Program-made: the position numbers and the translations under genes
Shown: one piece after another, positions 15,057 through 60,287 of the stretch
Numbering within the stretch: the first letter of the stretch is position 1
How the letters are laid out: each line of letters opens with the position of its first letter
Assembly: GCF_018350175.1 (NCBI RefSeq)
Contig: NC_058369.1
Location: forward strand, 4,650,001-4,714,000
Length of the DNA stretch: 64,000 nt
Reading direction: 5' to 3'
Origin: Felis catus
Lineage: Eukaryota
Notes under the pieces: generated by a model
Databases searched by the model: none
The model's input: the letters and a program-made list of their open reading frames with translations, nothing else
What the model was told of the DNA's origin: nothing

Positions 15057-15199
15057 NNNNNNNNNNNNNNNNNNNNNNNNNNNNNNNNNNNNNNNNNNNN
15101 NNNNNNNNNNNNNNNNNNNNNNNNNNNNNNNNNNNNNNNNNNNNNNNNNNNNNNNNNNNNNNNNNNNNNNNNNNNNNNNNNNNNNNNNNNNNNNNNNNN
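15057..15199. other. Assembly gap (N run)
   Basis: Ns. Confidence 1.
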
Positions 15200-23380: not shown

Positions 23381-23531
23381 NNNNNNNNNNNNNNNNNNNN
23401 NNNNNNNNNNNNNNNNNNNNNNNNNNNNNNNNNNNNNNNNNNNNNNNNNNNNNNNNNNNNNNNNNNNNNNNNNNNNNNNNNNNNNNNNNNNNNNNNNNNN
23501 NNNNNNNNNNNNNNNNNNNNNNNNNNNNNNN
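23381..23531. other. Assembly gap (N run)
   Basis: Ns. Confidence 1.
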
Positions 23532-29061: not shown

Positions 29062-34296
<5,235 letters not shown>

Positions 34297-38946: not shown

Positions 38947-39473
38947 TTAGCCGCCGCAGCTGCAGGCAGCCGCCGAGAGCTGGGGCAGCCGCTGCCAGCG
39001 GTGGCGGTCATCGAGAAAGGCCACGTCGGTGTAGCGGGTGGGCTGGCAGCAGGGCCCGCCGTGGGCTCTGCCCTGGCCCCGCAGCCGGGCCAGCGTCAGG
39101 CCGTGCTGGGTGCGGGCACCGCGGGGGCAGCTGCCTGCACAGTAGCGGAAGATGACCGTCTCCTCGGAAGCGTAGCCCAGACCCAGCTCGGCCACAGGTA
39201 GGGGCAGGCTCCACAGCTGGCACGGGCTGGCCAGGGCTCTGCGCAGGCGGGCACCTGCAGGGGACGAGGGGCAGCTGACAGTGAGCAGGGTCTGAGCAGG
39301 GAGGAGTGGGGGAGTCGTGCGGGGTCCGGGGGGTTCTTACCCAGCTGCGGCCTCAGGGTCCCTTGTGGCTCTTCCTCCACCACCGGAGCCCCCCGAGCAC
39401 CAGGGCCCCTGCCGAGGCCCGGCTGCAGCGACAGGAGCAGCAGAGAGCAGAGTAGGACTCTTCCTGTGGCCAT
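38947..39473 (-). CDS. PSPN: Persephin (GDNF-family ligand) prepro-protein, 2 coding exons, 146 aa
   Basis: Exons 39341-39473 and 38947-39254 joined across an 86-nt GT-AG intron (CTGG|GTAAG ... CCCTGCAG|GT). Signal peptide MATGRVLLCSLLLLSL, furin site RLRR, 96-aa mature cystine knot ALASPCQLW...LGLGY...FRYCAGSC...PCC...ACSCGG. Confidence 0.96.
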
Positions 39474-42080: not shown

Positions 42081-45000
42081 TCACTCCTTGAGGGAGAAGT
42101 GCATCTTGTCGCTGATCATCTTGCGCTCGGGGTTGAGCCGCTTGAGGATCTGGGCGAGCACGTTCACCGTCTGCTCGCTGCTCAGCCCCGTCTTCTTGGT
42201 CTGGAACTTCTTCAGCAGGTCCTTGGTGGTCATGGGCTTCCGAGTCAGATAGCGGCGCACCGCGTCCTCTGTCACCTGCACATCGCTGAGGAGCCGAGCG
42301 GAGGGCGGGGCGGGTGGGCGTCAGTGAGAGGCCTCCCCGCGCCCCTGCCCTGCTCCCCTGCCCCACCCCCCACCACCCTCGCCAACCTACCCGCTGCTGG
42401 GGGTCGACTTCCCGGACTGGGGCTGAGGGGTCGACTTCCCGGACAGGCTCTGGGGCCCGGCGTCCAGCCGCAACCGCTTGGCCACCGGCGTCTCATTCGT
42501 TCGCTTGCCTGGGGGAGCAGGGGAGGGGTTGAGCCCCGGGCCTGGGGGGCTGGACCCCCAGGGGCCCAGGAGGAGCGGGGCTGGGACCCCGTGTCCAGGG
42601 GGCCCCGGGGTGGACAGGCCTCTGCTCCAACTCTGGCCTCTGTTCCTGAGGCAGGAGGGGAGACTGAGGGCAGAGGTCAAGAGGTCGCGGCGAGGGGTGG
42701 GGCGACGGCCCTGCTCACCCTGCTCCAGCTTGGTGGCGGCGGCCCGCAGGGTGGAAGAGGTGCTGCCGCTCTCCGCGCTGGGTGTGCCCGGCCGGCTGTT
42801 GCCCCGAGAGCTGCCTCCCGACGGCCTCCGCTCCCTCTTGGGGGGCGTCTTCTTCTTCTGCGGAAATGGGGTTGGGATGTGAGTCTGGAGACAGACGCCC
42901 GCCCACCCGCTCCTGCCCGGGCCCGGGCCTCACCGCCATGAAGAGGGCCGAGGACGCCTCGCTGTCGATGTCGCTCTCCTCTGAGCTGTCCGACTCGTCG
43001 CTGCTGTCTGCATGGGGGCCGGAGGAGTGTCAGCGCCAGGGCGCCCCGCCCCGGCTCCACCCCAGATGAGGGGCTCTGGGAGCGGGCCCCCCCGGGCAGC
43101 GGGGAGGGGACCCACCTTTCCTGCGCTTCTTCTCCTGAGGCGTGGGCGCCTTCTTCTCCTCCTCCTCCTCCTTGTCCTCCTCGGGCGGCTTCTCCTCCTC
43201 ACTCTCCTCGCTGCTCTCACTCTGCTCATCTACGCCCTTGGGGCCCTCCTCCTGCTGGGTGACCTTGGGCTTGCCCTCCAGCTCATCCTGGGAGCTGCTG
43301 GAAGGCGGAGAACCAGCCGAAGACCGTGAGGGAGCGCGTGGGCCGGGCTGGCGCAGGCCTCACGCCCACCTCACACCTGCCTCCCGCCTGCCTCACCTTG
43401 AGCCGTCGGACATGTAGTCCACTTCCTGGCCCTCAAAGTCCCCGTCGTCGCTGTCTTCGAAGGCCTCGTCGTCGGACCCCTTCTTCTTCTTCTTCTTCCT
43501 GCCTCCCTTGGCCGGCGGTGCCTTCTTCTTGGCCTTGGGAGCTCTGCCACCTAGGGAAGCAGAGCGGGACTCAGGCCGGGCACTCGTCCCGTTTGGGAAA
43601 CCTGAGGATGTCTGGACATCTTGGGGGCCTCACTGAGCACGGAGAGACGCCCAGGACTGGCCTCTTACACGTAAACTGACCGGTCCAAGTCTATACCCCC
43701 AACTCGCTTTCTCTGACTCACACTCAGGGCCACCATCTCCGTCCCTGCATCCCCCAGAACCGTGTATCGGACAACTAGAGCCCACCCCTGTAGCCCAAGG
43801 CCCACCAGCATCATTCAAACGGGCCCATCCAAAGCTGTTCACCCTGCCCTGCGCTGCCCATCCATGGACACCCCAATAAAGGCTGCAGCTGAGACCTTCC
43901 CGTTGCTCCTCTCTGCCTCCTACCACCTCCCGTGCTTCCCCAAGGGCCGGTGCAGCGGGCTGTGCCCTGTCCTCATTCCCAGGGGACTGTGAGTGACTCA
44001 GCTTTCCCTCAGTGTCATCAACCTTCCTGAGTCGTCACTCAGACACCTTGAGGGAGTACGACCCAGGCTGGTCCACACGGCCACCCAGGGGGGCTCCACC
44101 AGCCTCACCCTCCTCGCCGCTGGCCTCGCTGTCGTCAGACGACATCTCCAGGTCATCCTCCAGGTCGTGGATGCGCAGCTCACTGGCCTTCTTGCGGCTG
44201 CGTTTCTCCTTCTCCTCGTCTTCCTCATCCTGGTCCTGATCCTTGAGCCGCCGTTGCTGCATGATGCTGAAGTGGTTCAGGACTTTGTTTCTCCTGTGGG
44301 CAGGGGAAGGGTACAGTGGGGGCTGACAAGGGGTCTGGCTCCAAAACTGGGCCTCCTCCCTGCGTCTCCACCAGGCACTCCCCAAAGGGGAATGACAGAC
44401 ACGACTTTGGTGACATGAGGGGACTCACACCCATGGCATGGAACACCCTGAAGTCACATGGGAGAGCTGGCCCTGCTTTGATCCCTTGTCTGTCCCATGT
44501 CCCTCAAAGATAAGGTTTCATGTGGTGTTGGGAGAGAGCATCTCTCTCCAGCTCAGGTCCTTTCTCAGACAACAGAATCTGGACACAACATATTCATGTC
44601 CATCTGTTTTTATGGTAGTTTATGGATGCCTTTGTGTTTATGAGAAGAAATAACTTTTCATTTACTTTGATGATAAAAGTTTTAAAAAATATGACTGCAT
44701 CTATGGAGAGCTTAGGATTACATCTAACAGCATAAGCAAAGTTCATCAGTGCTGTGAAAAGGAGTAAAGCTCCTGCACAAGAATGTGAGTGTAATTAACA
44801 CTACTGAACAGTACATTTAAGTATGGTTAAGATGGCAAATTTTATGTTTTTTACAATTAAAAGCATTTTTAAATTTTTTTTTTTTAACGTTTATTTATTT
44901 TTGAGACAGAGAGAGAGACAGAGCATGAACAGGGGAGGGGCAGAGAGAGAGGGAGACACAGAATCTGAAACAGGCTCCAGGCTCTGAGCTGTCAGCACAG

Positions 45001-48000
45001 AGCCCGACGCAGGGCTTGAACTCACGGACCATGAGATCATGACCTGAGCCGAAATCGGACGCTCAACCGACCAAGCCACCCATGCGCCCCACAATTAAAA
45101 GTATTTTTAATGGAAAAGAATGATGGGGGTGCCTGGGCGGCTCAGTCGGCTAAGCGTCCAACTTTGGCTCAGGTCATGATCTCACCATTCCCGAGTTCGA
45201 GCCCTGCGTTGGGCTCTGTGCTGTCAGCACAGAACCCGCTTCAGATCCTCTGCCCCTCCCTGGTTTGTGTGCACACACACTCTCTCTCTCAAAAAAATAA
45301 ACATTAAAAAATAAATAAATAAAAATTTAAAAAATTAAAAATTAAAAAAGGAACAAAGCACTGATATGTGCCACAACGTGGATGAACTTGGAGGACATTA
45401 TGGCGACTGAAATAAGCCAGAGGCAAACGGACAAATACTGCATGATCCGACTCATAGGAGATCCCTAAAGGGGTCAAACTCACAGAGACAGAAAGTAGAA
45501 TGGTGGGAGCCAGGGGCTGGGGGAGAGGGAGAAAGAGTTACTGTTTAATGGGGACAGAGTTTCAGTTTGGGAAGACGAGAAAGTTCTGGAGAGGGATGGC
45601 GGTGATGGTTGAACAATAATGCGAATGGGCTTACTGTCACCAAACTGGACACTTACAAACGGTTAAATGACAAACTACGTAGTGTGGATTTCACCCGTAG
45701 TTGGTCCAGCCATAGCCCTCCGGTCTGGGGGGGAAGCCAAGTGGGCCCCGGGGATCTCCCCCCGCTCTGCCAATTCCTGCTCCAGGGCTCAGCTCAGCAG
45801 CTACTACCTCCCCAGCCCTGTGTGTCCCTGATGCCTTCATGTCCGTCTCCCCCACTGAACTGGGAGCTCCCTAAGGGCTTGGTGGAGTCCGACCTGGTCA
45901 CCACCGAGTACCCAGCCCCCGGCCAGGCAGAAGTTATGGTGACACACTCCATTTCCAAGTGTGTCAGCCCCTTCTGGGGAAGCTGGGGAAGCAATGCCCG
46001 CACCCTGCCTCCCTCCAGGCCCAGCTGTGGCTCACACTCACCTTTCCCACTCCTCCTCGGCCTCCTCGGCAGTGAGCGTGCGATGCCGGGCCAGCGGCGT
46101 GAAGTTATACCAGTTGTGCACAGGGAAGGCCTCAAAGGCCCCATCGGGGCACTGGGTGAAGATATAGTAGGACGTGTTCTCTGTCACGCCTCCCTTCTTG
46201 ATGCCCTTGAACCTGCAGGGAGGCAACGTCACAGCCTGGCCCTCACGACCAGCCCCCTGGCCTGCCCTCTCTCCAGAACCACCTGGGTTCTCTGAGCAAA
46301 CTCCAAGCCTGAGAGATCCTGGGCCGGCCCTTCAACTGTGTGAGCCTCGATTTCGGCATCTGGAAAGCCGGGCAGCACTCCCCACCTCACGGAGCGAGCT
46401 CGGGGCTCCCCTCGTGGTACGTATCACGGCCCTTTCTGGAAGGACCGCGTTAGGTGAGCTGTGAAGCAGGGGCGCCGCAGTCACACCCCTCCGGATTTGC
46501 CTCCAGGTTTCTCCTCATGCCCGAACCAGTGCCAGCCTCCTCCTGGCCTCTGCCCTCACCCTTCCCTGCCCTAAAAGTCTGGGAAGTCTTACGAGTGCCT
46601 TTCCCTGCCCACGGCCTTCGAGGCTCCCCTGGGCCCCGGCCCACCCATGCTCCAGCTGCATCCTGGCACCCACCGTCCTGCGCTGTGCACCCGCCCTCTG
46701 TCGCTGTCACACCGTGGAGATCCGCACACCATTCCCTGCTTTCGTGCACACTGTTCTTCCCGGAGCCCCCTCCATCCACCTGACCTCCCAACCCTCACGG
46801 CCCCCGGTCCCCAGGCGGCTGCTCGCTGCGTGCGGTCAGGACAGGCTCTCGGGCTTCCTGTATGTACCCTGGTCCCTAAGGGCTCCTGCACCAGCACCAG
46901 CCTGGTTCATCTTCAGAAAGAAAACCCCACGAGGGACGCGGGAGTTCAGGGAGGGACGCCCAGCCGAGTCAGGACGCGAGGGGGTCGCGGGAGGCACTCG
47001 CCGCTGCCACCACTTACTTTCTGCCCGACTTGCCGTTGACGCGAAGCAGCCAGGGCTGGTCCTCGGGCCGGAACTCCTTGAGGACGATGCCGTACTTCTT
47101 CCTCCTCGCCTCCTCGCGAAGCTTGCGGTTGAACTCGCTGCCCGCACCCGACTCGGGCATCTCCTCCTCCTGGTAAATCTTCTTGTTGCTCAGGTCTCGC
47201 TCCAGCCGGGCCTGGAGTGACGGAGCAGGCGCGAGGGCAGGCAACAAACCTTCCGTCAGGGCTGCCTGCCTTCGCTCGAGCTGTGCCCGCCGCCCCCCAC
47301 CCTGCAAGAACACCCGAACGCCCTCTTCACCCCACCTCCCAGGCTGAGCTGCGGACTTGCAAAGCCAACCTCCTGCTTAGCGAAACAAAAAAGGGGTAGA
47401 ATGCTGGCCTTCGGGGGTGCATCTGGGCGAAGGCATGTGGGCAACCTCGTACCAGGTCTACTTGGCAGCTTTGGAAAGTTTGAAATTCTTTCTAAATCAA
47501 CATTTAAAGAACTAAATCAATAAACAAACAAACAGTGAGATCATTTTGGTGATAGGGCAAAAACAAAAAACAAGGAACTGGCCCGCTCTCTGCATTCAGG
47601 CCGTTTTCCAAATTTTGATCTTTAAAATGCACGTGCCGCTCACCCTAGAGGTCCCTCCTCCAGACAGCGGAGGTGAAATGACACGCGCAGTGCTGTTTAG
47701 CACACCAGTCTGTTGCAGCAGAAGACTAGAAGTCAACCTAACGCACATCAGCGGGGCACTGGCTTCATGCACGGGGCCTCCTCCACACAATGGAAGACAG
47801 AGCGGCCAGAAAAGAAAAAGGGGGCGACTGTAGGGAACAAGTCCCAAGGCCGCAACTGTAGGGAACAAGTCCCAAGGCACAGTGACTGAAAAAGGCAAGA
47901 TGACCCACACTGCTTCCTACTGACAAGAGATTTCAGACAGCTGGGAACAAAAAGATCCTACCAGCTACCAGGAAGAAGGGGGAAAAGTCCCTGGCCCAGG

Positions 48001-51000
48001 GGCAGGCCACGTTTTTAGAAACAAAGTCTTACTGGCATACAGCCACGCCCACTCGATGTGTCCCTGTGCCTTTACTGCGCATGTGCGGACACGCAGCGTT
48101 GAGGAGCTGCCGCACAGACACCGGCCAACCAAGTGCACCATAATTACTGGTCCTTTAAGAAAAAGCCTACTGACCCCTGATACAAAGGACAAGAGGGAGA
48201 ATGGCAGAAGCTCTCCACAGCCCACACCAGAAGCCAGAAAACACTGGAACAAAACCCTCACAACTTGAGAGAAAATGGTTACCAGGCTAGCTTATGATAC
48301 CCAGTCGAGCTACCCAGCCCGAGGCTGGAATCTGGACACTCACAGGGGTGCGAGGGAATTGGTGTGCACCCCGCACCTTTTTGGGGAGCCGGCCCAGGAT
48401 GTGCCTCACTACAAAAGGAAGGTAAACAGGCCTGATTCCCCGAACACGGTCACCCCAGAGGGCAGGGCCCCTGCCTGGCGTGTTCACCTTTAGCCCAGCG
48501 GAGGGTCTCCAGGGACAGTTGCTGAAAGAATGCATTTGGAGGGGGTTTCTGCCCACACGTTGCCCTGGGTGAGCAGCGGCTACCAGAGGAGGAGGACGTC
48601 CCCTGTGGTTTTAAGTGCTTAGATGGCTGTACCCGCCCCCTCCCTTGAGTGACTAGTGACAGGGGGGTATCAACCCAGCAGATTAGTTTTCTCCAGGGAA
48701 TGTAATCCCCCTCGTTGGTTTTTAGGGAGTGTGCCGTTTAGGCAATGAAAATTCAAGGGGCTGCATTTCCCTGTGACTAGGTTTTTAGGGAGTGTAACCT
48801 CCGTGTGGTGAAAGCAAGGAGTGATGAGTGACGTCCCCCCATGACGATCGGGGAACAGGGTATGTGTAACCCCCAAGTTACTAGCGGCTAGGAGATCACG
48901 TGTCTCGAGAGGTGATAACTATGCAGGCTCCGCACCTCAAGGCAGTGGGTGACGAGGGGCATGGACCCTCCAAGGGGACGAGTGGCTGAGGTGCAGACTC
49001 CTCTCAGTTCTCATGGATGCCGGGACAGGGCATCTCCTACGGATGACGGATCAAGAGTCGTGGGTTCCCAAGGTATTTACCAAGTCACTCCTCTTAGCGA
49101 GGAGTATTTGGGGGCAGGGTACCCGAAGGTGGCTTATTTCTCTCTCCTGGATGGTAAATGATGAAGAATGTCTCCCCACTGAGTGATGAGGGATTTGGAA
49201 ACACTGCACCCTCTCTGGATAACTTAGGCGGGGCCAGAGGTGGGGGGAACATGCTAGTCTGTATACAAACATGTGGGCAGCTGGCCGTGCTGACAGGCAG
49301 GCACCCTACAAGGGAAGAGGGCGCCTGGAGCAAGCATCCACCTGCCCAGTATCCAGAGGAGCACGTTGTTAGCACGTCTCTCTCAAATAGTCTCATTTGC
49401 TCAGCTGGGTGAAGTGAAGTTTAAAAATAGACAAAAGAGGGGCGTCTGGGTGGCTTGGTCAGTTAAGCATCCGACTTCGGCTCCGGCCGTGATCTCACAG
49501 TTCGTGGGTTCAAGCCCCGCTTTGGGCTGTCTGCTGTCAGCACAAAGCTTGCTTTGGATCCTCTGTCTCCCCTGCTCTCCGCCCCTCCCCCACTCATACT
49601 CTGTCTCTCAAAAATAAACATTAAAAAAAATGTTTTTTTAACAGCCAAAAGAGGGGCGCCTGGGTGGCTCAGTTGGTTGTGTCTGAGTCTCGATTTTGGC
49701 TCAGGTCATGATCTCGCAGTTTGTGGGATTGAGCCCCATGTCAGGCTCCACACCAGTAGCACACAGCCCACTTGGGATTCTCTCTCCTACTCCCCTGGCC
49801 CTCCCCCCCCACCCCCGCACACCCCCACCCCCGCACCCCCCCACCGACCAGCTTTTGCATGCACACATGTGCGCTGTCTCTCTCAAAATAAACTTAAAAA
49901 AAAAAAAATAGTCGAGAGTGGCACCTGGGTGGCTCAATCAGTTAAGCACCCAACTCTTGATTTCAGCTCAGGTCGTGATTTTACAGTCTGTGAGTTTGAG
50001 CCCTGCATCAGGCTGTCTGCTGTCAGCACAGAGCCCACTTCGGATCCTCTGTCTCCCTCTCTTCCTGCCCCTACTTGTGCTCTCTCCCAAAATAAATAAA
50101 CATTAGGGGTGCCTGGGTGGCTTAGTCGGTTAAGCGTCCGACTTCAGCTCAGGTCATGATCTCACAGTCCGTGAGTTCGAGCCCCGCCTCGGGTTCTGTG
50201 CCGACAGCTCGGAGCCTGGAGCCTGCTTCGGGTTCTGTGCCTCCCTCCCTCTCTGCCCCTCCCCTGCTCACGCTCTGTCTCTATCTCTCAGCAATAACTA
50301 AATGTTAAAAATAATAATAATAATAAAACAAATACACATAAAAAAAGAAAAAGATTCTCTCTCCCCCTCTCCTCCGTTGGCTCTTTCTCCCTAAAACAGA
50401 TTTTAGAAAAAAAAAAAAAAAAAAAAGTCCAAAGGCAGACCTGTGCTCGACAACCAGCTGAGCAGTCGGAGCTGCCCGACCGCGGGAAGGCCGGACCGTG
50501 CCGACTTCAGACTTGGGGCCAAGTCCCCTGCTGGGCGGCTCCAGTCTCTGTGGCTTTAAACGCTGCTCCAAATGCCCAGATGTGCCCTCCCGCTCTCCCA
50601 ACTCACAGGTCCAACTGCTCACCTACCGTCTCCTCCGGGATGTCTAATATAAGACGTCCCAAACTGAACTCCCCAATACTCCATCCATCTGGCCCTGGCA
50701 CCCCTCAACATCCAATCATTAACCGACCCTATGGGCTCCGCTCCAAACACACTAGAATCCACCCACGTCTCATAACGCTGTTTGCTCCATGCAACCATCA
50801 CTCGCCTGGACCACAGCCGACGCCTCCAGCCTGCACACCCTTCATCTGCCCTTGACCCCACAGTCTGTCTCCTGACAGTGCCTGGATCACTTTATAACTC
50901 CCCTGTTTAAAAAAATTTTTAATTTTTTAAATGTTTGTTTATTTCTGAGAGAGAGAGAGAGAGAGAGAGGAGAGCGAGAGAGCGAGACAGAGCATGAGTG

Positions 51001-52641
51001 GGGGAGGGCAGAGAGAGAGAGAGAGGGAGACACAGAATCCAAAACAGGCTCCAGGCTCTGAGCTGTCGGCACAGAGCCCAACTTGGGGCTCAAACTTGGG
51101 AACAGCAAGATCGTGACCTGAGCTAAAGCTGGACGCTCAACCCACTGAGGCACGCAGGGCCCCCCACCCTGATTTAAAACTCTTTAATGGCTTCAATGTT
51201 TGTGTTCCACCCCAAAATGCAGATGTTGAAACCTCACCCTCAGTGGGATGGTAGGGGGAGGTGGGGCCTCGGGGAGGGGATTAGGTCACGAGGGTGGAGC
51301 CCTTGTGAGTGAGATTAGTGCCCCTACAAGAGAGGCCCAGAGAGCTCCCTCACCCTTTCCGCCATGTGAGGGCAGTGAAAAGACAGCCATCTATGAAGCA
51401 GGAGGAAGGCCCACACCGGACCGAAAATCTGCTGGCGCCTTGATCTTGGACTTCCCAGCCTTCAGAATTGTGAGAAATAAACCTGTGTCGCTTATACGCC
51501 GCCCAGGCTATGGTGTTCTGTGAAGGCAGCGCCCGTGGACAGAGGTGGCTTCCAAATACCATCTGTAGGAGGCAGCCCCCTCCCTGGCCCAGATAACTCG
51601 AGGCCAAAAATGCCCGTCAGTGGGCACAACTTGTACATGCTCTCCTTTCACAAGGCCTGGGCAGGTGCAGTTAGGCATCCAAATCTGCCTCCCAGGGATG
51701 CACCCAGCAGCTCAGCCTGGGCCTCAGCACATCATTGGATCTCCGCTCCAGGAGAGGTGAGGAAACCAAGCCTCAGTTAGTACTATCACAAAGGGGAACT
51801 GTTACAACCCAGTGCAGGATCCCCTTGTCACACTCACAATGGAGACTGACCTGATTCCAGGTAGCGAAGTTGACTTTATCCGCTGCGTTGAAGGCCATGA
51901 TGTTGTATTTTTTAGTTGTGTTTCTGGAACGGGCAAGTAGGGGCAGTGCTCAGTTACTCGTTCATTTAGCAAACCCTCCCGGGCTCAGCAGTGCTGGGGA
52001 CCCACCAAAGACCCCAGGGGTTCCCAGTCTGTCAGGGAACAGATCCATGCCCTCCCAACCCCGTGCGGAAAGAAAGCAGAAGGAGGCACAGAGATCTGGG
52101 GGAACCAACATGTGGGAATAATGAGGAACTCTGCCCTGGGGATGGGGGAGGGCAGGCAGGGAATGCTTCCTGGGGGAGGAAAGTCCTGGAACTGGGTTTT
52201 AGGGAACCAACAAGAACCCACCCCACAGAGTCACAAGCGGGGAAGAGGCATTCCTGCCAGAGGGAATGAATGCTAGGCCAGAAGGCTGCATCCTGCCGCC
52301 TATTGAAGCACTCCTTCATTCGTTCTGCTCCAAACACAGAGATGCCCCCAGAGAGGCCTCGGCTGAACTCCAGCCCCGTCCTCAGGTCCCCCTGCTCGTC
52401 AGAGCGAGAAGCACAGGCGGTGCCAGCCATGTCTACGAGCTCAGGGAGGTATAGAACCCCTTTCGGAGAAGTGGGAAGAGGGGTCAGGGACTTACTTGGG
52501 AACGCGAACGACATACTCGGTGACGTTCTGGCTGCCGGGGCCCTGCGGGCAGAGAAGGCGGGACGGTGAGTGCGGGGCTGCGGAGGCCCCCGCAGGGACC
52601 CCCCCCCCCCAACTCCGCCGCATACTCACGAGGGCCGCCAT
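42081..52641 (-). CDS. GTF2F1: General transcription factor IIF subunit 1 (RAP74), 12 coding exons, 517 aa
   Basis: Exons 52630-52641, 52496-52542, 51851-51923, 47018-47211, 46042-46212, 44109-44293, 43397-43550, 43116-43297, 42934-43007, 42719-42857, 42391-42508, 42081-42285 (1554 nt incl. TGA), all GT-AG and phase-compatible. MAALGPGSQNVTEYVVRVPK ... C-terminal winged helix VTEDAVRRYLTRKPMTTKDLLKKF...HFSLKE. Confidence 0.98.
44870..45345. mobile_element. Two head-to-head CAN-SINEs in GTF2F1 intron 5
   Basis: Minus copy ~44870-45090 and plus copy ~45125-45345, embedded in old L1 3' fragments. Confidence 0.85.
47827..47878. repeat. Short tandem duplication (24-nt identical core, 28-nt period)
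   Basis: ACTGTAGGGAACAAGTCCCAAGGC at 47827-47850 and 47855-47878. Confidence 0.9.
49439..50340 (+). mobile_element. Four head-to-tail CAN-SINEs in GTF2F1 intron 3
   Basis: Starts near 49439, 49652, 49918 and 50106, each GGGG(C/T)GCCTGGGTGGCT-like with a (CT)n/A-rich tail. Confidence 0.9.
51190..51545 (+). mobile_element. MLT1A-type MaLR LTR
   Basis: AATGTTTGTGTTCCACCCCAAAATGCAGATGTTGAAACC...GGACTTCCCAGCCTTCAGAATTGTGAGAAATAAA. Confidence 0.75.
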
Positions 52642-53360
52642 GGGCGACGACGTTCGGTGGTTCGGGTCCGGTCCGGTCCTGTCCGCGTCCCTCAGTCGCG
52701 GGGAAGCCGCTCTCGCGGTGCCGGGTCTCTGGCCCCGACCGAGGACCCCAAGGCCGAGGTGCCACCGATCCTGGGAGCAACTACCGGGAAGCCGTGCTCG
52801 CTCGGCCGGCTCGGCGACCACTCCGGTCACGTCTGCGCCTGCGCCTAACCTGGAAGAGAAACTCGGGGTGCGTCGCGATGGCAACCTCCTCCGCGTCACG
52901 TATTTCCCCTCGACTCTTTCTAGAGGGAGGAGCCACGACCGACCCGCAGCTGGAGGAAGCGCCGTCTACCGCCCGGACCCGCGCTCGCGGCTCTATATAG
53001 CGCTGTTAATTTAATCTGCCGGGTGGACACGCCTCCCCGTGACGACACTCTCCGCGGGGCATCCTGGGAGGGGAGGGAGGAACTGGCCTTCCTCGCGAGC
53101 TCTCGCGCGCCTCGCGCATGCGCCACTCCGCTCCGGAAGTGCGCCCAAGGAGGCCGCGTCACCATAGCGACCGAGGTCTCTTTTGCGGCTAGCTGCCACG
53201 GCTCCACCTGAGCCTCTTTAGGGTCATTTCCTCCTTCTGCCCCTGGGAGACCTCATCATCTCGCCAAACGATCGGGCCCTTGTGACGCTGAGCCGAGCCA
53301 GGAGGCGTCAGAGCCTGGGTGGGGGTGGGGCGCGACCACTCCACGGGCCGCTGACGGGAT
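52640..53360. promoter_or_regulatory. Bidirectional CpG-island promoter, GTF2F1 / AK-like locus
   Basis: NRF1 GCGCATGCGC 53114-53123, ETS/GABP CCGGAAGTG 53133-53141, CTCGCGAG 53092-53099, palindromic CTATATAG 52993-53000, X-box-like sites 52872-52885 and 53158-53171. Confidence 0.75.
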
Positions 53361-55574
53361 GGGTCTGTGCAAGTCCAAGCTGCCCCACAAGGGCAGGGCC
53401 TTGAGATCCAGGAGGAGGGTAACATCGCGGGGGGCGGGGAGGGGCTGGATCATTGGGGGGAAGTAAGGAGGCTATGAAGGGCATGAGGGAGGTACATACA
53501 GGTGCCCCACACCCCAAGTTCAGGTGTGCGCATGACCCCCACCCACCCGTGGTGGTAACACAACTGCACATGCTCAAGGATCAGCCCTTCTTTGATCCAC
53601 TTGAGCACCTGCTGTGCCAGGTTCTGGGCACTCCACGGTGAACGTGTCAAACTAGCTCCCTGGCCTCCTGGAGATTACAGCGTAGTGAAGGAGGCGGTCT
53701 CAGAAAATGGGATCTACGAGCAGGAGGGGACAGGGGAGCCACAGGGAAAGAGGCGTCCGCTCTGAGGGCTCCGGGAAGAGGGGAGGTTTATGCTCCGCCC
53801 CGTGGAATGCCTAGGAATTCACTAAGCAAAGGCGGAAGGAAGCAAGACAGCAAAATTGCGCTATAAACTACCACACTCCACAGACATGCCTGGTAGCCAT
53901 GGGCGTGCATTTATTTACTCATCGCCCACTACTATATGTCAGGAACCGTGCCAACTATTAGAAATATTGGGACCAGCAAGACAGAAACAGTCCTTGCCCT
54001 CATGGAGTAGAGTCTGGCTGGGGAGAGAAGCAAGAGCAAATAAACAGGCGAAATCGTTACTAATCGTGGCTGTTGCTGTGGAAGAAATGGGGCTCTGAGA
54101 TGGAACGATGGGGTGGGAGGCTCTTGGAGTCTGACAGGTCGGCTGTGACCTGAAGGAAGAGGAGCAGGGACTTACTGCAGCAGGGAGGAGGCGGGGCACA
54201 GGACAGCAGGAGAAGGATAAGTTTGGCAAGTTCAAGGGACAGAAGAGGCCCCTGGGGCTGGACCAGCGTGAAGGAAGAGGAGGGTGGCGTGGGATAAGTC
54301 TGGGGGATGGGCGAGTCCCCGCCCCACTCTGAGCCTGTTTCCTCAAGTGTAAGATGGGATAGTAGAGTCACTGAGATTCTTCAAGGAGATGCTGTGTGCA
54401 GAAGGCCTGGCCTGCTCAAGTTCACATCCTCCCGGCTACCTGTAACAGAACTAACGATGCCATGCCTGAGTGTACCATTGGGCATGGATGTGCACCCCCA
54501 GATGCCACCCTAGGGCATAGCCAAGTGGGTATTCCAGGAGACCTGTGTCCAGTGTCACTCACCCAAGGACACACACTAAGCTGTGGACACAGTCACCTCA
54601 GCGTGTGTTGGCTCCTGTAGGCATCAAACCCTCTCCCCACCTCTTCCCTGGGCCCCCCAGACATCCTCAAGTCCGCTCTGATCGTCTTCGTGATGGGTGG
54701 CCCAGGTTGTGGCAAAGGGACACGGTACAAGAACATGGCGACCAAATATGGCTTTTGCCACGTTGGACTGGGCCAGCTGCTGACCCAAGAGGGCCAATGC
54801 AGGACCCAGTGGGGCTGGGGGGCCTGTGACATCATGCTGCAGGGGCTCCTGATGCCCATGGTGAAAGCTCACAGGCACAGGGGCAGAGGGAAGGAGGAGG
54901 TACCTTCCCTGGAAACCCTGTGGAAGCAGATAGGCCCAGAAGGTTCTGGCTCCCGGCCTGGCCACAGCTTTGCTGCACTGAGCCTCTGTGTCCTCACCTG
55001 TAAGATGGGAGACCAGCTGGCGTCTGTAGGGACAGTTGGCTGACGTCATTCTCATAAAGCACTTGGTGGAGTGCCTGACATTTAACAAACAGTAAAGTTA
55101 GCTCGTATTTATTCCTTTTGTGACCTTGGGCATGTATATCAACTGGCCCCTCCTGTGCCCGTTCCCTTACCTGGAAAATGAAGGTCACCCCTGTATCTAC
55201 CCGTAAGAAGGTAGTGATAAATGAATGAGACCTCGCGAGCCTGGCACACGGCAGCCACCAGCCCCTGTAGATGGCCTCAGTGCATCAGAGTGGCCCTGGG
55301 GCACCAGGGCAGACCTAGAACCCCAGGCACTGGCCAGGGCAAGGGCTCTTCTGAATTCACCAGAAGTCCAGGCCAAGGGAGAAAACTTGACAAAGTGGCC
55401 ACGTGGGGGTGGGGGTGGGGGAGCCTGGGGCACCAAACCCAACACCCCTCTCCTTCCCAGGGCATCATCACAGACCTGATCAGCAACACCATGCTGTCGT
55501 GCCAAGAGAGCTGGGCCTTCCTCACCGACGGCTTCCCTTGGAAGCTGAAGCAGGCCAAGGAGTTGGAGCGCATT
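53359..55574 (+). pseudogene. Intron-containing adenylate kinase (AK1/AK5-like) gene or unitary pseudogene, 5' part
   Basis: Exon 54661-54860 (200 nt): DILKSALIVFVMGGPGCGKGT (P-loop)...KYGFCHVGLGQLL...DIMLQGLLMPM|GT. Exon 55461-55574 (114 nt): GIITDLI...FLTDGFPWKLKQAKELERI|GTGAGT. Putative exon 1 53359-53418 MGLCKSKLPHKGRALRSRRR|GTAAC. Intron positions match the AK1/AK5 family. LID and C-terminal exons were not found in the window. Coding versus pseudogene status is unresolved. Confidence 0.8.
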
Positions 55575-58500
55575 GTGAGTGACCCCAGGGTGTGTGAGAA
55601 TGTGGTGAAGTGTGGAGCTACTCTCCCTCCCCACCTTGGGTGGAGATCGGAAGGGATAAGACTGGGGAGAGCAGTTGGCGGCGGCGGGAGGGGGGGTGTG
55701 GACTGGAGTTTTAGATTTTCAAGGGACAGTCAGAAGACTGTTGGAAGCTTCTAGCCACTGTTGGTGGCTAGCTGCCGAGCTCTCTGAGGGCAGGGACAAA
55801 GTCATACTAATCTTTTCCTGCACACGGATCATTTGCCCCCTGAGTAGCGCATGGGTTTAGCATCATCCCTGGGCCATAAAGATGGAGTTATTCAGCCACC
55901 TGTCCCCAAATGGTCTGAGAACAGACCCTGTCCTTAGGCGTTCACGAGACAGACTCAGTCCCTGCCGGTAGACAGACACTGACCAACACGTGACTTGCCG
56001 AATGAAGCTGAGACGTTTCTGGCAGCAGTGAAGGCAGCAAAGAGCAGAAGACAGAATGACGTCCCCGAGGGACACACGCGGGCTGTTTGAGTTGGGTGGC
56101 CCCGGTGGCCTCCTCAAAGCGAGGACGTGGGACAACTGAGCAGCGAGAAGAGGAGCCAGCCCGCGTTGGCAAGTCACACTCGGTCTTCAGGTTACTTCTG
56201 CCGGCAGCGCTGACTTCCTGGAAAGGCCCACCCAGGCCCCTGAACAGCCGTGGCTGGAGAGTCCGGAAATGGCCGAGCAGGACAAGAGGAACTGTGGTGG
56301 GTTGTCGGGCCCCGGGCTTTTCTGGAACTTGCCAGATGCCGTTGAAATGCCTTCAGAGAAGCGCAGGCGGGAACCAAACCGACGTCACCACCGAGGGCTG
56401 GGGCCGCTATCCTCGTGGGCAGGCGGGGCCCTGCCCTCTGTTAGCACCTGCACGGGAGCAGTCCTGTCGGGCTCCTGGCAGTGACTTCCAGGGCAATGGA
56501 ATGGGTTCCCTCTCCTGGTCTGGGAGCTCTGAGGGCAAAAGCCGAGCTAATGAATTTCTCTGTCCTCAGCAGCCCCGGGCCAGCGGTTTGGACCCTATGG
56601 CATTAAAAAAAAAATTTTTTTTTTTTAAGCTTATTTCTTTGAGAGAGTGACCAAGCCGGGAGGGGCAGAGAGAGAATCTCAAGCAGGCTCTGAGCTGCCA
56701 AGCACAGAGCCCAACTTGGGGCTCGAACCCACGAACTGTGAAATCCTCACCTGAGCTGAAATCAAGAGGCGGGGGCTTGGCCGGCTGAGCCACCCCAGCG
56801 TCCCATCCCTACAGCATTTTTAAGAGTTTTTTTCTGCAGCAGTGGCCACCCTTCAAATATCGAGAGAGGCCACGTCAGAACTCCCGGCTTCCCTTGCAAA
56901 GGGCCTGACTTGGCAACGTGGGGCCTGCATGTCCCCATGGCAACAGCAGCATGAATGCATCTCGAGCTTTTTCCTGAGCTCAGGGCTGTTCTTGACACTA
57001 CACGGATGAGCTCTGAGCTTTTGGAACATTCCAGAAAAGCGTTTCTTGCACCGTAAGCATCCTGCTTTTTTACAGAGGGATCGGGCAACTTGCCTGGGTC
57101 ACACAGTTGGTCTCGAGGCCTAGATGTTAACCATGTCAGCAGGGGTTCCCTCTCTGCTTCCCCCCCCCCCACCAGGGTCCCCCTACTCCCACGGAGGGTT
57201 GCTCCTCCATCATGGAGGCCGAGCGCCACCTGCCATTAGGATCCTGCTCGCGTTGTGGTTTTATGCTAAGAGGAACAGAACACATGCCTTCCTCGTACCC
57301 ACGTGGCTGCCAGAAGTGACGAAACAAACAGGCCTGGGTTATGAGAGTGGATTTTCACTGCGGAGAATTTTCTAGATCTCTGTGAGCTGCCGGCCCCATG
57401 TTGGCCTTTGAGGACCCTGTAGGCCCCTGCCTTGGGTCTGTCCAGGTATCCCTGGAGGCCACCAACTTGGCCCTTCAACCTGGACCCTGCCAGGCCTGAG
57501 TGTTTTAGCTCCACCTGTGGTGTGAGTCAGTGCAGTGGGTCTGGCTTGAAGCCAGCACTCCAGAAGTCTGGGGATCCTTCTCTTTGCCATTCCTGTTCTC
57601 CCTCTCTGGACATTCAAAACACTGCTGGGGGGTTTCTCGGGGCCAAGGTGGTGAAATTCACAGGAAGCCAAGGTGAAATGACATCTTCTAGGGAGATCAA
57701 TGCCCCATTTTACAGACAGGGAAATCGAGGCCCATGGAGGGCAGGTTACTTGAGGTTGGCTCCTGCCCCTTAGGAGGCTGGCCAGCCTAGTTCAGACACT
57801 GGCTTTGGAGCCAAGGAGACTGGCACTCAGGTCACGCTCGGTCACTTTCTCCACCTGTCTGTAATCCGCACAAGACCTGGCTTCCCGAGCCTCAGGTCCA
57901 TCATCTGTGAATGTGGACAGAAATGCTACAAGCCTCTTTTCCATGTGGGGAAGGTGGGGAAGGCTTCTTCCTGGGACGGTTTCCCGTCTGTTTCCAAGAT
58001 TGCTTCAGTCACCTGTGCACCTGTCCGAGAACACAAGCTGGGGGGAGCCGAGGCCCGTGGTGGGTGGCCTGTGGCCTGTGAACACATGGCGACTCCCTGC
58101 CAGGCTGCACTGTGCACAAGGGGCAGTGAGGAGGACCAGATAACACTTGTGCAGCCTAGATTATCATAATCCGGTTGGATTTCGTTGGAGCATCCGTGAA
58201 CCGTCTCCCTGAAACGCCCAGACACGGGAGGTCATTTCTCTGAGTCGATGTTCCCCCCAAAGTGTTAACCTGCAAGGAAGCTCCCCTGTTCACGACAGAT
58301 TTAAAAAAAATTTTTTTTTTGGATGTTTATTTTTAAGAGAGGAAGAGAGACAGAGCGTGAGCAGGGGAGGGGCAGAAGGAGAGGGAGACACAGAATCCAA
58401 AACAGGCTCCAGGCTCCCAGCTGTCAGCACAGAGCCCAACGTGGGGCTCGAACTCATGAACTGTGAGACCACGACCTGAGCCGAAGTCAGACGCTTAATC

Positions 58501-60089: not shown

Positions 60090-60287
60090 NNNNNNNNNNN
60101 NNNNNNNNNNNNNNNNNNNNNNNNNNNNNNNNNNNNNNNNNNNNNNNNNNNNNNNNNNNNNNNNNNNNNNNNNNNNNNNNNNNNNNNNNNNNNNNNNNNN
60201 NNNNNNNNNNNNNNNNNNNNNNNNNNNNNNNNNNNNNNNNNNNNNNNNNNNNNNNNNNNNNNNNNNNNNNNNNNNNNNNNNNNNNNN
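60090..60287. other. Assembly gap (N run)
   Basis: Ns. Confidence 1.

Follow-up and report, generated by a model that had tools for sequence, protein, structure and literature searches.

The stretch of DNA analyzed here, 64,000 nucleotides of the Felis catus genome (contig NC_058369.1, positions 4,650,001 to 4,714,000; hereafter the window), probably contains exons 1-3 of an unnamed paralog of the adenylate kinases AK1 and AK5, whose orthologs form one clade extending from amphibians to mammals; the intact orthologs are predicted to be lipid-anchored, short-LID nucleoside-monophosphate (NMP) kinases, and the cat copy is likely to be a pseudogene that was inactivated in the cat family. A broader reading, towards which we lean slightly, is that the AK1/AK5 set has a third member in tetrapods, which would be their tenth adenylate kinase; this enzyme, anchored by lipid and with its NMP pocket remodeled, works in mouse, rat, dog and marsupials and was lost independently in cats, in Old World monkeys and apes including humans, in whales and cattle, and perhaps in birds, frogs and fish. 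The adenylate kinases counted in papers number nine (PMC8726475).

Kinase exons in the cat window

The features relevant to the locus are as follows:

30741-34296, plus strand: CLPP
38947-39336, minus strand: TGF-beta-family gene
42387-52641, minus strand: GTF2F1
52400..53300 (approximate), no strand: CpG island between the GTF2F1 and kinase start codons
52630..52641, minus strand: first coding exon of GTF2F1 (MAAL), the head-to-head neighbor, with its ATG at 52641
53359..53418, plus strand: kinase exon 1, coding part; 60 nt, donor GTAACA, phase-0 end, protein start MGLCKSKLPHKGRALR
54619..54660, plus strand: upstream AG acceptor stretch, a candidate alternative start of exon 2 with first base 54621
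54661..54860, plus strand: kinase exon 2; 200 nt, beta1, P-loop GGPGCGKGT and NMP-binding helices; acceptor CCCCCAG, donor ATG/GTGAAA
55461..55574, plus strand: kinase exon 3; 114 nt, DGFP motif; acceptor TTCCCAG, donor ATT/GTGAGT

The two splice-bounded NMP-kinase exons at 54661-54860 and 55461-55574, which an earlier note had recognized from the letters alone, are borne out by their AG/GT ends, their motifs, the phase 0 found at the 3' ends of both in the splice-frame analysis, and the Pfam ADK profile. The latter matched exon 2 with 42.2 bits (cut-off 26.8; E = 1.2e-10) and exon 3 with 23.6 bits (E = 6.1e-5), a score that alone lies below the same cut-off. Translations of the kinase exons matched PDB entries of AK1 and AK5 about equally well (E = 1-3e-10), and the P-loop GGPGCGKGT of cat exon 2 conforms to the pattern GxPGxGKxT. 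The ADK similarity of exons 2-3 is far beyond chance. The presence of two introns with splice sites within the coding region excludes a processed retrocopy, as the same note had argued.

It had further supposed that the last exons lie outside the window. Ten queries covering exon 4 onward, six of them felid, retrieved only noise from the 64-kb window (best 29.6 bits, outside the locus), and an exon-3 control query in the same search gave E = 1.5e-23; the LID-encoding and final exons (4-5) are outside the window. Three assembly N gaps are present (15057-15199, 23381-23531 and 60090-60287). The last of these, 198 nt long, has a size that fits exon 4, and it was dropped as a candidate for that exon, as SINE sequence lies on both of its flanks. 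Intron stretches at 53903-54037, 55607-55753 and 56200-56292 match read-through models of hippo and fur seal; as far as tested, these are conserved non-coding DNA and not extra exons.

Genomic neighborhood and the intervening CpG island

A profile scan of 69 of the 72 ORFs in the window identified the neighboring genes, with TFIIF_alpha Pfam matches at 42387-47376 supporting GTF2F1 on the minus strand. The TGF-beta-family gene at 38947-39336 is, from its position, presumably persephin, and we take the order CLPP, persephin, GTF2F1 to be that of human 19p13.3. The closest proteins and the SINEs of the window point to the cat family. The proposed head-to-head arrangement with GTF2F1 holds: 718 bp separate its minus-strand ATG (52641) from that of the kinase (53359). 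Windows of 200 bp starting at 52400-53100 have a GC content of 0.65-0.72 and a CpG observed/expected ratio of 0.8-1.2, which drops to 0.5 at 53200, so that the kinase ATG sits barely outside the edge of the CpG island. The island at 52400-53300 is likely to be a bidirectional promoter, and the kinase would be transcribed from this GTF2F1 CpG-island promoter in the opposite direction. A palindrome at 53114 and a motif at 53133 are, we assume, of the NRF1 and ETS type, respectively. Upstream-running models from camel, baiji and macaque match the window at 52640-52776, 53118-53225 and 53278-53418, with the camel model reaching the GTF2F1 start codon, which indicates the same head-to-head GTF2F1 context in other placentals.

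Distribution and annotation of orthologs

Searches with exon 2 yielded 126 candidates, 118 of which passed, and every organism-named one among these was from a therian mammal. Most are labeled "adenylate kinase isoenzyme 1-like" and they include mouse Gm17949 and human XP_016882293.1; together with rat A0A8I5ZQM1 these database entries are 65-88% identical to cat exon 2 and represent the same gene, often mislabeled as AK1 or AK5, a practice that can corrupt orthology calls. From the shared name, the human entry is probably LOC390877. Since automatic annotation lists the gene in many species, the description of it as "hidden" was overstated: it is not undiscovered, but a real, unstudied member of the known ADK family. 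No study of it was found in the literature covered, and gene-loss screens beyond this coverage may list it. LOC390877 appeared as a mere list entry in the papers examined and nothing was found for Gm17949; of the listed papers on AK phylogeny and duplication, none concerned this gene, judging by title or the start of the abstract, and those listed for ak5l or for GTF2F1, KHSRP and pseudogenes had no bearing on it. Nothing was found for it in connection with unitary pseudogenes or an AK1/AK5 paralogon.

When a marsupial protein served as query, the best 120 of 192 matches also included platypus, turtles, alligators, lizards and snakes. Echidna and salamanders came from a search of representatives combined with name look-up, while axolotl and three caecilians were reached with a newt query. 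Among the newt-query matches listed (the best 120 of 1343), only those amphibians score closer to the family than to AK1. Thus, the gene is old, as had been proposed, with orthologs throughout tetrapods from amphibians to mammals; no fish, frog or bird ortholog was present among the matches listed (the best 120 or 150 of each search).

Intact orthologs are of the five-exon type, 212 aa in length, and start with MG-x-C. The 212-aa paralog is intact in rat and Mus caroli, and exons 2-4 are intact in the house mouse; an intact rodent paralog, if true, would be an overlooked phosphotransfer enzyme, one that might make up for the missing activity in Ak1 knockouts and set rodents apart from humans. 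In 30 of 174 family models, ranging from marsupial to primate, the 114-nt exon 3 is skipped in frame with removal of the DGFPR motif, which may reflect either an inactive isoform that has been conserved or merely the way such genes are annotated.

Phylogenetic position and origin

In a tree of 61 hand-picked domains, the 29 rows belonging to the family form one clade (support 98/86), within which amphibians, amniotes, squamates, mammals, therians and placentals are recovered as supported groups. AK1 including its lamprey member (95/90), the AK5 C-terminal domain (AK5-C; 99/95) and the AK5 N-terminal domain (AK5-N) all stand apart from it, though the branching order of these four groups is unsettled in this tree. 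In reduced trees of 25-26 rows, from which felids, most placentals, AK5-N and long outgroups were left out, the family is sister to AK5-C (98/93 and 97/93), in agreement with the affinity that the earlier note had suggested; this link joins two long branches, which might be pulled together by their length. The sampling of AK5-C amounts to four domains, and the family is sister to, not inside, the sampled amniote AK5-C. The lineage is therefore its own, as had been claimed, and nested in neither AK1 nor AK5.

These results bear on whether AK1 recently gave rise to the gene in a single lineage, as a copy or retrocopy, as might be read from the label "isoenzyme 1-like" and from the scores of intact orthologs (186 bits against AK1, 173 against AK5). 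The gene has introns and its members form a separate clade from amphibians to mammals; moreover, a clade uniting the family with tetrapod AK1 is rejected (p-AU 0.003), and one uniting it with all AK1 is weakly rejected (p-AU 0.035). A recent AK1 copy is refuted by the separate clade together with these tests, and we assign it practically no probability.

Like AK1 and AK1beta, with which it shares about 44% identity (rmsd 1.3 A), the family has one ADK domain with a short LID, the P-loop and catalytic arginines, and an MG-x-C start joined just ahead of a (D/E)-x-L-K motif. It differs from AK1 in forming a separate clade, having the acylation start as its main form, bearing NMP-site changes at positions 38, 39 and 41, evolving faster, possessing an invariant CC near the amniote C-terminus, having been repeatedly damaged, and lacking an intron inside the VVG-GPG region. 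With AK5-C it shares, besides the sister position in the reduced trees, the junction G-x-L-V-P-x/G-x-I-L and the C in D-C-S-x-x-T-M. Unlike AK5, a group marked by two ADK domains and an N-terminal extension, the orthologs are 212-aa single-domain proteins without the N-terminal domain or first ADK domain, and with the acylation start; they also keep the LID arginines, some of which are missing from the AK5-C domains sampled. Sampled AK5 C-terminal domains from catfish, cobra and gerbil (P0234, P0258, P0446) have degenerate LID motifs and long branches. CMPK1 shares the short-LID NMP kinase fold, but scores only 114 bits compared with 186 for AK1, at about 30% identity. Indirect evidence on intron positions in AK1 and AK5 comes from aberrant models, whose breaks follow GELVPL and EFEKK or FEDQ and precede GPGSG; this fits the introns that the earlier note had stated for them.

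Several AK1-type loci encode long, AK5-like two-domain isoforms. A 627-aa AK1 isoform from Xenopus tropicalis (P0321), which has an internal MG-x-x-C start, can be aligned with both domains of gerbil AK5; a comparable isoform is encoded in the frog Hyperolius (P0336), and in a river lamprey protein (P0207) the N half is of the AK5 type and the C domain of the AK1 type. These frog and lamprey forms suggest that the ancestral locus made both a long two-domain and a short acylated product. AK1 and AK5 thus look like halves of one ancestral design, from which the present gene would have kept only the short acylated form.

We take AK5 to lie at 1p31 near FUBP1, AK1 at 9q34 near FUBP3, and the present gene at 19p13.3 near KHSRP. 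The regions 1p11-p32, 9q33-q34 and 19p13 are described as paralogous regions derived from two rounds of duplication (PMC1309616). The gene may have arisen by duplication in early vertebrates, with the AK5 C-terminal domain as its sister. Alternatively, the C-terminal half of AK5 could have been duplicated as a single gene later, in the lobe-finned or tetrapod stem rather than in the early-vertebrate genome doublings: only tetrapod members occur among the matches listed, and a grouping of the family with amniote AK5-C to the exclusion of catfish AK5-C is not rejected (p-AU 0.305), so that including the catfish domain did not date the split. Against this stand the duplication-derived paralogy of the three regions, the AK5-like two-domain forms encoded by the Xenopus and lamprey AK1-type loci, and the lack in AK5 of the MG-x-C exon that this gene and the long AK1 isoforms have. 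We consider the later duplication unlikely, if still a serious contender, and tentatively favor the early-vertebrate origin.

Predicted fold, catalysis and membrane anchor

The model of a marsupial ortholog (pLDDT 90.8) has as its top Foldseek match human AK1 with bound Ap5A (rmsd 1.3 A) and adopts the closed, AK1-like form; matches in the ESM Atlas were limited to general ADK/UMP-CMP clusters. A residue table in AK1 numbering was prepared from 64 hand-picked proteins, one per species. When felids, catarrhines and the cetacean/banteng group are set aside, 41 of the remaining 48 species have all of the arginines R44, R97, R132, R138 and R149, namely amphibians (5/5), reptiles (8/10), monotremes and marsupials (7/7), placentals (16/20) and caniforms (5/6), the exceptions being alligator, garter snake, sloth, shrew, camel, ground squirrel and polar bear. 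Mutants of human AK1 are reported to retain about 20% activity (R44A and R97A) or less than 0.1% (R132A, R138A and R149A; PMC8297476). The P-loop lysine, the five arginines and the DD pair are retained over the whole tetrapod span.

The NMP site shows a different pattern. The position of AK1 T39 is L, M, I or V in the tabulated proteins where present (n = 64), apart from two lynxes that also have L, and positions S38, D41 and E62 of AK1 are likewise changed in the family. T39 of AK1 is, we presume, an adenine contact, and CMPK1 is presumably also without Thr at this position. The hydrophobic residue together with the changes at 38, 41 and 62 suggests that the acceptor may not be AMP alone; those at the S38, T39 and D41 positions may shift the NMP preference.

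The N-terminus points to lipid modification. Motifs for N-myristoylation and palmitoylation consist of a Met-Gly start with a Cys nearby and a small residue at position 6, a pattern to which the cat start MGLCKS conforms by prediction. Cys4 is found in 43 of the 50 proteins, out of 174, that have an exon-1 start (absent in 7/50). Myristoylation of Gly2 and palmitoylation of Cys4 would tether the enzyme at membranes, where it could run the reaction ATP + NMP <-> ADP + NDP in the manner of AK1beta, which is described as myristoylated and membrane-bound (PMC2680645). The product of the intact gene is therefore probably an NMP kinase with a lipid anchor, which would buffer nucleotides at a membrane. 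Close to the C-terminus, all 19 amniote orthologs aligned have a Cys-Cys-Ser motif, possibly a second acylation site or a redox switch.

The altered T39, S38, D41 and E62 positions, the 30 models lacking exon 3 and DGFPR, and the repeated loss across lineages could also be explained if the whole family were a pseudo-enzyme or acted on a non-AMP substrate, serving as a membrane nucleotide sensor or adaptor. The retention throughout tetrapods of the P-loop lysine, five arginines and DD pair, and the closed AK1-like predicted model, argue otherwise; we regard this explanation as distinctly unlikely and favor an active, membrane-held NMP kinase in species with intact genes.

Decay in felids and separate damage in other lineages

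The cat copy departs from this picture, contrary to the working gene that the earlier note had implied, by an exon-1 frameshift, lost catalytic arginines and decay common to felids. Exon 1 here has 60 nt and ends in phase 0, whereas exon 2 requires phase 1. Orthologs have RPQEK followed by G or D over a phase-1 intron, while cat exon 1 reads RSRRR, with QEE in the shifted frame at that point; this match suggests that one base was lost near 53407-53409. As exon 1 is short by one base, the splice from 53418 to 54661 encounters a stop six codons into exon 2. The frameshift is a single assembly base within a short C run and is known from this assembly only. The AG at 54621 is the sole nearby acceptor that keeps frame with the short exon 1, with the reading then being open; with other exon-1 donors (53463, 53492, 53502, 53518) and exon-2 acceptors (54593, 54602, 54672), the reading runs into a stop or the phase does not fit.

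Within exons 2-3 the equivalents of R44 and R97 are T and W, and the invariant QC after the P-loop is RY. Altogether 15 of 62 conserved columns are altered, compared with 0-6 (median 2) in 24 other mammals, and those altered in cat include eight that are invariant in all 24 (Q42, C43, R62, A65, I75, L91, G106, F122). Several of the changes are R-to-W or R-to-C, as would be expected of CpG decay. All 38 residues of cat exon 3 agree with the Iberian lynx model, which indicates that the changes in this exon are not sequencing errors. In felid exon 4, 8-9 of 31 conserved columns are altered versus 0-5 in the comparison set; R149G, a codon deletion and four further changes, among them L148W, Y172D and F181S, occur in all six felid models from big and small cats. 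The R44 equivalent is lost in all six felid database models, none of which uses exon 1, and five lack exon 3 and begin inside the first strand. The felid stem branch in the 61-domain tree measures 0.32 as against 0.024-0.053 for other placental pair stems. The felid copy thus bears, at the orthologous locus, disabling lesions of the kind that define unitary pseudogenes (frameshift and residue losses), and is probably a pseudogene inactivated in the cat family; its significance is mostly that of a marker of gene loss.

Some features speak against decay: exons 2-3 are stop-free, their AG/GT ends and the P-loop are intact, and RefSeq lists felid models as protein-coding. A felid protein might still be made via the 54621 acceptor, which gives an open frame, or by starting at an internal Met (54693), and act either as an enzyme of low activity or in a non-catalytic role; six felid protein models exist in databases, and AK4 is described as having a function in spite of being inactive (PMC2680645). 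In view of the altered columns that are invariant in 24/24 mammals, the exon-4 lesions common to all six felid models, and the skipped exon 3 and start within the first strand in five of them, this seems quite improbable, and the pseudogene is the preferred reading.

Among the hand-picked species, the full arginine set is absent not only from all seven felids but also from all five catarrhines and all four species of the cetacean/banteng group (0/7, 0/5 and 0/4 retain it). The catarrhine, cetacean and banteng damage appears to be separate from that of felids, and such parallel damage in several mammal lineages offers a ready test of which trait made the gene dispensable. In gibbons, camel and dolphin only 4-6 of the 62 conserved columns are altered, which makes gene loss there less certain.

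The substitution at R97 in cat exon 3 is the same as that in PDB 8x1g, the solved human AK1 R97W mutant. This mutant is reported as open-state (bioRxiv 10.64898/2026.05.29.728804); no activity data on AK1 R97W were found in the literature. The exon-2 donor is GTGAAA in cat, and 13 read-through models from other mammals have Val-Arg (GTG-Arg) at this point, which suggests a weakened +5 base in cat. An in-frame GT near 54901 (window 54861-54906) agrees with the model of the Iberian lynx, in which HRGRGKEE leads into exon 3, and is possibly a cryptic donor in felids.
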